Below are positions 29,662 to 30,994 of a DNA stretch of 64,000 nt, one piece after another. Each line of letters starts with the position of its first letter. Position 1 is the first letter of the stretch. This DNA comes from a virus (Duplodnaviria; Heunggongvirae; Uroviricota; Caudoviricetes). A model generated the notes under the pieces. That model was not told where the DNA came from, did no database searches, and saw only the letters and a list, made by a program, of their open reading frames with translations. Made by a program: the position numbers and the translations under genes. The DNA is taken from the IMG/VR virus record IMGVR_UViG_3300049830_000314; one strand, 5' to 3'.

Positions 29662-29718
29662 TACAAAAAAGAGGCAATATATTCCATGAAAAACATATGC
29701 CTCTTATTTCGTTTTTTC
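29662..29718. terminator. bidirectional rho-independent terminator
   Basis: AGAGGCAATAT / ATATGCCTCT hairpin flanked by ACAAAAAA and TATTTCGTTTTTTCC. Confidence 0.65.
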
Positions 29719-30213
29719 CTTGTTGTGCGTCACAAGGTGAAAGCTTCTAGCTGAGCAACCCAAAGCTTTCACGCCGCGATTTCTTGCTCTAGTGTCTCCG
29801 CGAATCGACACGTTCTAGGCGAACAGCCAACGGTTCGTTTATAAGTAAACCGTCAAACGACTTACACGTTTATGCAGCGCGTGTTTGCTAACGAATTGTG
29901 GATATTTCGTCATCCCACTTAGATTTAGCACTAAAGCTAACAGCTAGTGTCCCTTGAGTCGTATGTGTACCAACCCTCTTTTTTGCGTAAAAAGAGTAAA
30001 TTGTCATTACGTGTGTGTCATTAATTTCCATTGCTTGCGCATTCAAGCATTACATACCAGGCTGAGCGTTACTTCAGCTTCGAGAGCTTCCGGGCTGCAT
30101 ATTATCCCCTGTGGTCTATTATTGGTTCAGCAGTTGTTCCCAGTACCTTTTATTTCGCCTTCCTTCGTCGTGTACTTTGACAAAGACTCTCTTATTGGCG
30201 TCCGTCAACGTGT

Positions 30214-30438
30214 CTACTTTCCACGTCGCTGATATGAAATACTTTTCCACCATGTGGTGAATTTATGTTTAAAGCTTTTCAGTCTGCGCTCTTCTTTTTC
30301 TTCATCAATCATTTGCTGAATCATTCGTTGTGATTGTTCATCGAGTGTTGATAACTCAACATTTTTCACAGAAGCAATACGATTGTCTTCTGAACCCGAT
30401 ACTACAACATGAAGAACTTTCATGATAACTTTATACAA
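30214..30438 (-). CDS. hypothetical small protein
   Basis: 74-aa ORF embedded in an otherwise ORF-poor region. Confidence 0.3.
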   Translation of the reverse strand: MYKVIMKVLHVVVSGSEDNRIASVKNVELSTLDEQSQRMIQQMIDEEKEERRLKSFKHKFTTWWKSISYQRRGK

Positions 30439-30994
30439 ATTTTACGGTTTTATGGAAAAGATAACCGCAAACTCCTCCGCCAGTTATTTAACGTCCAACA
30501 AGACGCTTCACTTTACCGAAGAGGCGACCGTCAATCACCCGGTGAAATTGTTCCCGCAAAAGTCGCTTCGAAGTCAACCTATAACTAGTGCGGTAATCTC
30601 GCGTCCCATCCGTATAGAATGGGCTCAGTTTCCCTTTCGGGCACAACACTGGCAACACATAGGCTATGTTAGCGCCAGCGGATTAATTCGTATTTAATGA
30701 AAATGGTGTGCTATTACGCCAAAGCCTCTAAGGGTCGCTTGTTGCATCGCCAGATATCCTTTCCCATCTTTCTCTAACTTAATTCTAGGCTTCGCCCTTC
30801 AAACAAACAACAAGCATTGTACTTGTCCCTCCCCTGTGTTTATACGAATCCAGCGCTGGGAAGCCTGGAATACGGACGCCTTTCGGCTCACACTCGACAC
30901 TCTTTAAATGGTGGCTGCTTTCAGGCCAACATCCCAAATTCATTAAAATCGTTATTCAGTTGTCAAAGTTCTAGTTGTGTTGTAAGCGGCAATA

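Follow-up and report, generated by a model that had tools for sequence, protein, structure and literature searches.

The GTPase-associated centre (GAC) of 23S rRNA, which comprises helices 42-44, is the site bound by ribosomal protein uL11 and thiostrepton. Its 58-nt uL11-binding domain (E. coli positions 1051-1108) is among the best-studied RNA tertiary folds, for which binding assays and mutants exist. On the ribosome, A1067 and positions 1068-1070 touch elongation factors, and A1067 is also a contact of, and important for, thiostrepton. Imitation of rRNA protein-binding sites outside the ribosome is exemplified by ribosomal-protein operon leaders, such as the L10 leader and the L1-binding leader of the L11 operon, which are partial mimics acting in cis in the 5' UTRs of ribosomal-protein genes of cellular genomes. 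Among virus-encoded RNAs, EBV EBER1 binds ribosomal protein L22, and phage pseudo-ToxI and phage tRNAs that counter anticodon nucleases are further examples of decoys or sponges. We use such viral decoy RNAs as a comparison class (see also PMC3475682). Finally, GOLLD and ROOL are large, ornate structured RNAs borne by phages in tRNA-rich regions.

A mosaic of RNA modules around a small gene

When ORFs of at least 100 aa are masked in the window, i.e. the whole 64-kb stretch of phage DNA analysed here, 29654-30816 is the second-longest remaining gap, after the GOLLD region (33745-35504). The ORF-poor region reported in a preliminary description of this DNA is therefore real, and comparative evidence also bears out its reading as non-coding structured RNA. 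Instead of the second large ncRNA that had been suggested, the gap is a mosaic of independently conserved RNA modules around a genuine small gene. Four parts can be distinguished on the minus strand, namely, a GAC-mimic RNA, RNA-B, a 69-aa ORF and RNA-C, the last ending at a terminator, so that the apparently empty 1.3 kb is dense in conserved RNA elements. The GAC-mimic RNA is the sole part of 29.0-32.0 kb that resembles other phage loci.

The minus-strand ORF listed at 30214-30438 is the only conserved ORF of the gap; with its ATG at 30423, it encodes a protein of 69 aa (30214-30423). Its homologues are 100% (P0001) and 78% (P0002) identical, and the gene is syntenic in two relatives, L238 and L239, the former of which was found through this ORF. 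A search for syntenic relatives via the peptidase and SPFH genes yielded 35 loci with no conserved neighbourhood. When phased to the ATG, the substitutions against the relative number 10/2/13 at codon positions 1/2/3, which is a coding pattern, and the small ORF is real.

Directly upstream of this gene lies RNA-B (30425-30689, minus strand), a leader-like conserved non-coding module that consists of B1 (30689-30550), a closed multi-hairpin fold with a z-score of -2.1, and B2 (30549-30425), a unit of ~110 nt that is tandemly duplicated in L238. B1 and B2 are, respectively, 92% and 89% identical to their L238 counterparts, above the value for the ORF, and the substitutions in RNA-B are compatible with the structure. 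On the other side of the gene, a window-specific spacer (30072-30213, minus strand) that is absent from L238 is followed by RNA-C (29719-30071, minus strand), a conserved multi-hairpin non-coding module. The core of RNA-C (30010-29770) is 88% identical to L238 and contains 1-nt indels, which rule out an ORF; 68 pairs are predicted, 6 of them compensatory. Neither RNA-B nor RNA-C has a match in Rfam or any exact-motif match in IMG/VR (0 for each), and both are specific to this phage lineage.

The two boundaries proposed for the region hold. The hairpin at 29663-29712 (-20.7 kcal/mol, z-score of -3.87 on the minus strand, followed by U6) also folds on the plus strand (z-score of -3.2) and is conserved in L238; because it folds on both strands, and with U-tracts on both, 29662-29718 can be assigned as a bidirectional intrinsic terminator. 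At the opposite end, directly upstream of the GAC-mimic RNA, the ORF at 30995-31396 (minus strand) matches the HNH endonuclease family PHROG 2255 (E 3e-14). This protein shows just 25% identity over 56 aa to the product of the gene at the same position of L238, unlike the small ORF and the SPFH relative, which are both 78% identical to their window counterparts. Together, the HNH gene and the GAC-mimic RNA behave like a cassette inserted or swapped relative to L238, and the HNH gene is a probable mobile partner of the RNA.

Could the gap nevertheless be a single unit, i.e. one continuous ncRNA over 29.7-31.0 kb, a frameshifted or degraded gene, or an intron? The gap is long and poor in ORFs, and its parts all share one strand and precede one terminator, which makes a single primary transcript possible. 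However, alignment with L238 showed conserved modules rather than one continuous unit: the GAC-mimic RNA and the 140-nt spacer are missing from L238, B2 is duplicated there, and modules have been gained and lost independently. Furthermore, a genuine ORF sits in the middle of the gap, and outside of it there is neither a conserved frame nor a match to a protein or intron family; a conserved frame and protein similarity were seen only for the 69-aa ORF. A degraded gene, one of the earlier proposals, is not supported, given the lack of a frame kept in L238 and of matches in Pfam and PHROG, as well as the better conservation of the non-coding modules (88-92% identity to L238) compared with the ORF (87%). 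Nor is an intron-like insertion supported, given that no group I or II signal was obtained even at E<=10 and no host gene is split. We consider a single unit of any of these kinds extremely improbable. The plus-strand ORFs 29954-30232 and 30422-30697 were rightly dismissed as spurious, as they have no Pfam or PHROG match and are disrupted in L238, where a segment of ~140 nt inside the former is missing and 110 nt are inserted in the region of the latter.

The evidence for structure rests on comparison and not on thermodynamics. By itself, the folding stability of the region is unremarkable (z-scores of -0.7 to -2.1), and so is the single-sequence MFE z-score of the GAC-mimic RNA (-0.69). Two of the three hairpins originally listed, ccctttcgggcac and ggacgcctttcggctcac, are genuine and on the transcribed minus strand read CCC-GAAA-GGG and GCC-GAAA-GGC, respectively, both capped by GNRA loops, whereas the third, cccggtgaaattgttcccgc, is not self-complementary and forms no hairpin. 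The tetraloops said to be shared with the 33.7-35.5 kb region are generic GNRA loops, and by self-BLAST the region resembles nothing else in the window in sequence. The Rfam scan that had been recommended matched no family: with the gathering score and with E<=10 on 29500-31200, the best matches were at chance level (E 0.25-8), and the models of GOLLD, ROOL, HEARO, group I and II introns and tmRNA gave no near-threshold score in that interval. A wcaG match in L238 (18.7 bits, E 0.91) was not reproduced in the window and was therefore treated as chance.

A GAC-like RNA and its phage family

A distant blastn search produced only one match, of 140 nt, in Xanthomonas phage XacN1, the first lead to the family of the GAC-mimic RNA; megablast of 20 kb against GenBank phages gave no match. 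The element measures ~256 nt from the 5' flank to the 3' flank of its closing stem (30692-30949, minus strand), and Rfam 15 contains no family for it. Comparative analysis shows that its core is a structural copy of the GAC of 23S rRNA (helices 42-44), with the closing stem in place of helix 42. This stem, P1, is formed by AUGAAUUUGG (30934-30943) and CCAUUUUCAU (30697-30706), with compensatory changes in 8 of 9 pairs across 19 sequences. Next comes a helix-43-like hairpin with the 1067 loop, AUGUUGGCCUGAAAGCAGCCACCAU (30908-30932), which aligns to both Salmonella 23S rRNA and the Rfam LSU consensus; it has the stem G1062-G1063-C1064/G1074-C1075-C1076, the 1065-1073 loop and a lower stem that covaries (AUG/CAU, AGG/CCU, AAG/CUU). 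The junction UUAAAGAGU (30899-30907; the UUUAAAGAGU junction) corresponds to rRNA positions 1082-1090, including U1082-A1086, G1087 and A1088. It is the same as the rRNA consensus and is 83-100% conserved, with most positions invariant, among members retrieved via the other end of the element. The helix-44-like hairpin GGCGUAAUAGCAC (30708-30720), recognized by conservation and covariation, carries the 1095 loop (GUAAUA). In members retrieved by the 5' pattern, G1093, U1094, A1095, A1096 and A1098 are conserved at 96-100%, whereas position 1097 is variable.

The larger part of the RNA is an accessory domain of ~175 nt (30724-30898) that interrupts the 5' strand of helix 44. Its elements are P2 (GUC/GGC), P3 (GUGU/ACAC), a GAAA-capped hairpin, a 9-bp P5 and the GGGCGAAGCC hairpin, as well as an invariant AGGGG...CCCUU helix and invariant motifs of its own, AGGGG/CCCUUAGAG; helices P2, P3, P5 and P6 covary. 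Across the family, the domain varies, with at least 31 BLAST-distinct types, and it may carry the real function. A resemblance of this domain to the sarcin-ricin loop (GGACAAGUAC), noticed by eye, was dropped because the strand order is mismatched.

Several lines of evidence support the assignment of the core. The consensus structure comprises 46 pairs, and over the 19 sequences 93% of the cells are paired, compared to 69% in shuffled controls (0 of 500 reach 93%) and 36-41% in slid controls. Compensatory changes occur in 31 of the 46 pairs, and the covariation score is 0.58, versus 0.16 for shuffles and 0.06-0.14 for slid controls. With the insert excised, the window core is identical to Salmonella 23S rRNA at 43 of 50 positions, and the alignment score of 70.5 far exceeds that of shuffled sequences (23 +/- 4, maximum 41). 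The Rfam LSU model has no match in the window at the gathering score, nor at E<=10 in 29500-31200. The XacN1 homologue matches LSU_rRNA_bacteria at positions 1095-1146, and a family member that lacks the insert matches LSU positions 1081-1156 with 71 bits (E 1e-21). A genuine 23S rRNA gene or fragment was rejected as an identification, given that there is no LSU match past helices 42-44 and that the flanks are phage genes or tRNAs.

The conserved features extend to tertiary contacts. U1060 and A1088, which form a tertiary pair, are invariant in the members. Among the 95 distinct members, the equivalents of 1072/1092 are C/C in 62 and U/U in 31, with 2 exceptions, and the C-G pair (1092-1099) becomes U-A or U.G in step with position 1072, so that 92 of the 95 have either C/C-G or U/U-A or U/U.G; a Fisher test of this association treats the members as phylogenetically independent. 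Both states are found within one accessory-domain type. The covarying positions match the 1072/(1092-1099) base triple found in the genuine GAC (Conn, Gutell and Draper 1998). From these patterns, we infer that the element folds into the GAC tertiary structure. The fold-determining nucleotides are conserved at ~100%, whereas A1067 is an A in just 52% of the members (G in the window copy), and A1067 and 1068-1070 are the least conserved positions of the core. Such a distribution is more readily reconciled with a protein that reads shape, uL11 being one, than with the binding of factors. The members were gathered by exact-match patterns, so that the conservation figures are partly biased by ascertainment, a bias reduced, not removed, by taking the conservation of each end from members retrieved through the other.

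Overall, the elements constitute a large superfamily specific to phages, in which the GAC core is invariant and the accessory domains can be exchanged; members often lie inside same-strand tRNA arrays. At least 95 distinct members are present in phage contigs. The 5' pattern is found in 98 IMG/VR stretches, and 92 of 95 pattern matches in newly fetched loci are not in rRNA genes; the 3' pattern occurs in 94 metagenome stretches versus 4 contigs among 185,579 species genomes. Unannotated copies are carried by cultured phages, namely, Pseudomonas putida pf16, Cronobacter GAP32, Pectobacterium CBB, Serratia BF and XacN1. A same-strand tRNA lies within 30 nt of 41 of the 95 members; for instance, it occupies the interval that separates tRNA-Asn from tRNA-Pro in pf16. 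In the window, no tRNA adjoins the element, the nearest being 3.8 kb away, and a search for its promoter revealed no convincing candidate. Three insert-free copies (L139, L169 and L174) are found in the 5' leader of an ORF for a 55-aa hydrophobic protein, immediately before a hairpin and a ribosome-binding site. The general setting is translation-related (tRNAs, an IF1-like gene, a SpoU methylase, GOLLD). Recurrent neighbours, including TerD and NUMOD4/HNH homing endonucleases, are clade-specific only, and there is no ribosomal-protein gene among those annotated. Clustering of neighbours in search of a universal partner protein gave a best cluster present in 13 of 95 loci.

Candidate functions

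The best explanation and most likely reading, which we put forward tentatively, is that the GAC-mimic RNA acts in trans as a uL11 decoy. The element would be produced as a stable RNA, released by tRNA processing in many phages and derived, in this window, from a transcript that extends from the HNH gene as far as the 29.7-kb terminator. It would then take the GAC tertiary fold and bind uL11 in trans, as suggested by the conservation of the fold and general knowledge of uL11-GAC recognition, thereby drawing uL11, or another reader of that surface, away from the ribosomes of the infected host. A possible gain would be blunted uL11-dependent activation of RelA and, hence, of the stringent response. 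Because uL11 is non-essential and ribosomes are abundant, the expression of such a sponge would have to be very high for it to have an effect. The RNA is also dispensable, as it is absent from the otherwise syntenic close relative L238.

Several other functions deserve consideration. The mimic might absorb enzymes that attack this rRNA site (ADP-ribosyltransferases, nucleases or methyltransferases) and shield ribosomes from defence or competitor toxins, much as host tRNAs under attack are replaced or shielded by those of phages. We know of no GAC-directed anti-phage defence effector. Toxins against exactly this site do exist: Tre23 ADP-ribosylates nucleotides 1095-1098 in helix 44 of the GAC (PMC8661411). 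The 96-100% conservation of the helix-44 loop and the co-location with tRNA arrays point in the same direction, and RNA ligase genes near the element in the window and in XacN1 fit a theme of RNA damage, although such genes accompany the element in just 3 of 149 loci. Given that A1067 is variable and that a plain decoy needs no large conserved accessory domain, we regard protection of this kind as unlikely. The combination of an invariant core with at least 31 interchangeable accessory domains suggests a two-part adaptor, in which the GAC core, with or without uL11, and the accessory domain recruit a phage protein, a translational GTPase or a factor associated with the ribosome. The RNA would then be a platform rather than a sponge. 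The translation-related setting is compatible with such a role, but the positions that contact factors are precisely those least conserved in the core, and no protein gene is consistently linked to the element, which makes a scaffold rather improbable.

Control in cis appears less probable still. The element could sense free uL11, or a thiopeptide-uL11 complex, and control the downstream RNA-B and 69-aa gene, all on the same strand, much as the three insert-free copies precede the hydrophobic ORF. However, most members lie between tRNAs or ahead of unrelated genes, L238 has RNA-B and the ORF without the element, and there is no evident expression platform beside the window copy. An autoregulatory leader of a ribosomal-protein gene was rejected, as the gene downstream encodes the 69-aa protein and the genes nearby are those for HNH and SPFH proteins. 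Strongly disfavoured is the notion of a non-functional piece of host rRNA captured and carried by a homing endonuclease. Adjacency to the HNH gene, gain or loss as a block relative to L238, and the resemblance of minimal copies to recent rRNA captures would agree with it, but in at least 95 diverged members all helices and the base triple are maintained by compensatory changes, the closing stem pairs in every case although its sequence has no relation to that of helix 42, and the element has been retained in phages that infect many hosts.

Extending the uL11-decoy reading, we suggest, more tentatively still, that large phages of many bacterial phyla encode an unrecognized class of stable RNAs, expressed and processed with tRNAs, in which free-standing GAC copies fused to lineage-specific accessory domains would act on host translation, reprogramming or protecting it, through the capture of uL11, of factors that bind the stalk or of toxins directed at the GAC. 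If so, this would be the first case of a virus that uses mimicry of an rRNA domain as a weapon, and it would join phage tRNAs, tmRNAs and ribosomal proteins in the takeover or shielding of the translation machinery. It would also explain what occupies one kind of gap that recurs in phage tRNA arrays, and provide annotators with a new RNA family to model. The reading is directly testable, as the element is present in cultured phages of tractable hosts.

Comparison with known RNAs

In the literature available without subscription, we found no description of a phage mimic of the GAC or uL11 site. The closest known counterpart is the 23S GAC itself, with which the phage element shares the secondary structure and a near-identical sequence, the same junction, the same U1060/A1088 positions and the same covariation of 1072/(1092-1099). 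Unlike the GAC, the element is a free-standing gene of ~60-420 nt rather than part of a 2.9-kb rRNA, has an arbitrary closing stem for helix 42 and an insert in the 5' strand of helix 44, and does not conserve A1067. Like the ribosomal-protein operon leaders, it imitates a protein-binding site of rRNA outside the ribosome, and a ribosomal protein from the same stalk region is its probable ligand. None of the Rfam leader families matches it and, by contrast to the partial mimicry of the leaders, it appears to be a near-complete copy of a tertiary domain, usually located between tRNAs and unlinked to ribosomal-protein genes. By analogy with viral decoys, it would be a virus-encoded stable RNA that imitates a host or defence RNA and captures its partner; the difference is that the imitated molecule would be an rRNA domain, of which we found no phage example. 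Finally, GOLLD, located only 3.5 kb away in this window, and ROOL are comparable as structured RNAs of phage tRNA-rich regions, but share no sequence or model similarity with the element, which is much smaller and has an identifiable cellular template.

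A GAC-like RNA in an ORF-poor gap

When ORFs of at least 100 aa were masked in all six frames, the longest uncovered gap of the window was 33745-35504, which contains a GOLLD RNA, and the second longest was 29654-30816, bearing out the ORF poverty noted in the preliminary description. Both borders proposed there also hold: an HNH endonuclease gene on the right (30995-31396, minus strand; PHROG 2255, E 3e-14) and, on the left, a terminator hairpin (29663-29712) that folds on both strands and on the minus strand (-20.7 kcal/mol, z -3.9) is followed by a U-tract. Of the hairpins quoted for the region, two are real GNRA-capped minus-strand stems and the remaining one lacks self-complementarity. 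Folding energies of single sequences from the region are unexceptional (z -0.7 to -2.1), and the suggested Rfam scan returned no family at threshold there, even at E ≤ 10.

The sole phage match in GenBank (140 nt, 73% identity) is in the Xanthomonas jumbo phage XacN1, where it falls in an unannotated intergenic gap; the similarity spans about 235 nt, and the XacN1 copy, on its minus strand, weakly matches positions 1095-1146 of the bacterial LSU rRNA model. An insert-free member of the family (locus L169) matches positions 1081-1156 of Rfam LSU_rRNA_bacteria with 71 bits (E 1e-21). In 23S rRNA, these model positions correspond to helices 42-44, the GTPase-associated centre (GAC), the region that binds uL11 and thiostrepton. 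The window RNA (30949-30692, minus strand) presents the GAC elements in rRNA order: a closing stem (30943-30934 with 30706-30697), a helix-43 hairpin (30932-30908), the junction UUAAAGAGU (30907-30899), an inserted accessory domain (30898-30724) and the helix-44 hairpin GGCGUAAUAGCAC (30720-30708). Without the insert, 43 of 50 core positions are identical to Salmonella LT2 23S rRNA (alignment score 70.5; shuffles 23 ± 4, maximum 41).

Public collections were scanned with two conserved strings taken from the window-XacN1 alignment. The 3' pattern, CCCTTAGAGNNTTTGGYGTAA, occurs in 94 metagenome stretches and, among 185,579 species genomes, in only four MAG contigs; the IMG/VR count of seven contigs comes from an earlier version that began with an additional GA and had C where the present pattern has Y. 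The 5' pattern, GGCTTAGARGCAGCC...TTTAAAGAGT, was found in 98 IMG/VR stretches, and 92 of its 95 matches in newly fetched loci are not rRNA genes. The fetched loci hold 123 elements with both halves and the closing stem (95 distinct sequences), which apart from a single outlier measure 60 to about 417 nt in total; by BLAST, window similarity to all loci is restricted to 30689-30946. The insertion point, between AAAGAGU and the helix-44 hairpin, is constant, and the inserts fall into at least 31 BLAST-distinct types, that of the window being shared by 49 of the 95 members and containing an invariant AGGGG...CCCUUAGAG long-range helix. One family member (L009:3413-3155, minus strand) carries an additional hairpin of ~36 nt in helix 43, within the 3' strand of its stem, which makes this helix a second permissive insertion site. 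The sequence comparisons, including the covariation described below, show a phage-specific family of structured RNAs, with a core carrying the secondary and tertiary signature of the GAC.

The predicted structure of the GAC-mimic RNA is under selection. When 46 pairs derived from RNAalifold and rRNA homology were scored in a varied set of 19 members of the subtype to which the window RNA belongs, standard pairs occupied 93.0% of cells, compared to 69.3% in shuffles (0 of 500 reach 93.0%) and 36-41.5% after shifting partners by 1-3 columns. Double-sided changes affect 31 of the 46 pairs, and the covariation score is 0.584 (shuffles, 0.161; slid controls, 0.06-0.14). The predicted tertiary level of the GAC is also maintained in the family. 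The equivalents of 23S positions 1072/1092 are C/C in 62 of the 95 members and U/U in 31, with two exceptions, and pair 1092-1099 follows this state, changing from C-G to U-A or U.G; this covarying set is the base triple known from the GAC of the ribosome itself. Both states occur within one accessory-domain type, implying repeated switches. The U1060 and A1088 equivalents are invariant. To limit ascertainment bias, each half was scored only in members found through the other half; on this basis, the fold-determining nucleotides are about 100% conserved, and position 1067 is A in only 52% of members (G in the window).

Neighbouring modules and the HNH cassette

Homologues of the small ORF of the gap led to two contigs, L239, identical to the window in this region, and L238, a syntenic relative whose version of the ORF encodes a protein with 78% identity. 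Comparative alignment, likewise suggested in the preliminary description, was performed on these three sequences and resolved conserved modules around the ORF. L238 has no GAC-mimic RNA, and where the window has the HNH gene it carries one with little resemblance (25% identity over 56 aa); the HNH gene and the RNA therefore behave as a unit that can be swapped. RNA-B (30689-30425, minus strand), the 265 nt separating the mimic from the ORF, is 89-92% identical to L238, with changes compatible with structure; the ~110-nt 3' unit (30549-30425, minus strand) is tandemly duplicated in L238 (5759-5870, plus strand). A wcaG RNA match in the extra copy was sub-threshold (E 0.91) and is attributed to chance. 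The ORF, starting with ATG at 30423, is 87% identical to L238, with 10, 2 and 13 substitutions at codon positions 1, 2 and 3, respectively. Beyond a window-specific stretch (30213-30072) lies RNA-C (30071-29719, minus strand), with a core 88% conserved, 1-nt indels and 68 predicted pairs, which continues into the conserved terminator. Neither RNA-B nor RNA-C has a match in Rfam, the other loci or the IMG/VR motif scans; we describe them as putative leader-like and terminator-proximal structured RNAs, respectively, specific to this phage lineage. Thus, the expectation of structured RNA was correct, but that of a single large ncRNA gives way to separate modules around a real small ORF.

Carriers and genomic setting

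No constant protein neighbour accompanies the element, the best cluster adjoining it in 13 of 95 loci. An RNA ligase is nearby in the window and XacN1, yet this association holds for no more than 3 of the 149 loci. The neighbour that does recur consistently is tRNA, found in 70 of 95 loci, with a same-strand tRNA within 30 nt of 41 elements. The element takes up precisely the unannotated space separating tRNA-Asn from tRNA-Pro in Pseudomonas phage pf16, and in Cronobacter phage GAP32 it occupies the gap between genes 395 and 396. Further cultured carriers include CBB, Serratia BF, several Erwinia pEa_SNUABM phages, XbC2, Aeromonas 4_4572, Milchi and Astolliot; among the carriers listed, the position of the element never has an RNA annotation and is either blank or covered by a 'hypothetical protein' CDS.

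The surroundings in the window include translation and RNA-repair genes, assigned by synteny with L238 and L239: a PF09414 RNA ligase (27761-28480, minus strand), an IF1/eIF-1a-like gene (27467-27751, minus strand) and a SpoU-type 2'-O-methyltransferase (36189-36707, plus strand). In XacN1, a PF09414 ligase mis-annotated as '2'-5' RNA ligase' (L001:4246-4896, minus strand) lies directly upstream of the GAC-mimic RNA. The window GOLLD RNA (34450-34916, minus strand; Rfam 154 bits), 3.5 kb from the region described here, embeds a tRNA (34774-34848, minus strand) with the opal-suppressor-type anticodon UCA, called tRNA-SeC by ARAGORN. About 20 tRNA genes elsewhere in the window form several minus-strand arrays, and a group I intron match (15347-15538, minus strand; 55 bits) exceeds the gathering score. 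Suppressor-type tRNAs (CUA or UCA) in other GAC-mimic contigs (L082:782-855, L114:3087-3162, L159:11864-11940, L190:10123-10198 and L193:6207-6279), including a UCA tRNA directly adjoining the mimic in L082, hint at stop-codon-recoding phages. Contig L154 encodes a tmRNA (11050-11373, minus strand; tag DEYLPLAA) about 150 nt from its element. Many short phage-labelled GenBank records (H5-H14 and H16-H33 of the 'phages' collection), such as Listeria phage LM 4-11-1, Staphylococcus phage SA 1298 Kay contigs and Salmonella WGS contigs, are pieces of 23S rRNA from the host and reflect contamination or mislabelling.

Candidate functions and known systems

Across species, uL11 reads the fold of the 58-nt domain. 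We infer that the GAC mimic would be a stable trans-acting RNA folding like this domain and, once folded, would bind uL11; the relaxed conservation of A1067 points to a shape-reading protein rather than to elongation-factor or thiopeptide contacts. More speculatively, uL11-dependent activation of RelA could be weakened if uL11 were sequestered. Chief among the alternatives is a decoy for enzymes attacking the GAC: ADP-ribosylation of helix 44 at 1095-1098 by a toxin has been documented (PMC8661411), and no part of the phage RNAs is better conserved than this loop. A scaffold is possible, as is a cis-acting leader, with which the insert-free copies are consistent. These ~77-nt copies (L139:~4320-4402, minus strand; L169:1749-1825 and L174:~3115-3195, both plus strand), in AT-rich viral contigs and scoring 71 bits to the LSU model, are part of the 5' leader that precedes a 55-aa hydrophobic ORF (MQKYNLAILLILLLL...), with a hairpin and the ribosome-binding site coming after them, and may represent cis-regulatory use of the same mimic. 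A junk rRNA fragment, by contrast, is excluded by the covariation.

Rfam 15 contains no family for the GAC-mimic RNA, and no phage mimic of the GAC or uL11 site was found by full-text searching of the accessible literature or in phage ncRNA surveys and jumbo-phage reviews, although an unnamed bulk-predicted motif is possible. What emerges is a new, widespread family of phage RNAs whose structural identity is clear and testable and whose function is inferred. Mimicry of rRNA sites by RNA is already known from ribosomal-protein leaders, and viral decoy RNAs are likewise a known kind; the novelty lies in a phage-encoded, free-standing RNA that copies an entire tertiary domain of rRNA and carries modular accessory domains, possibly more than a new variant of these themes.
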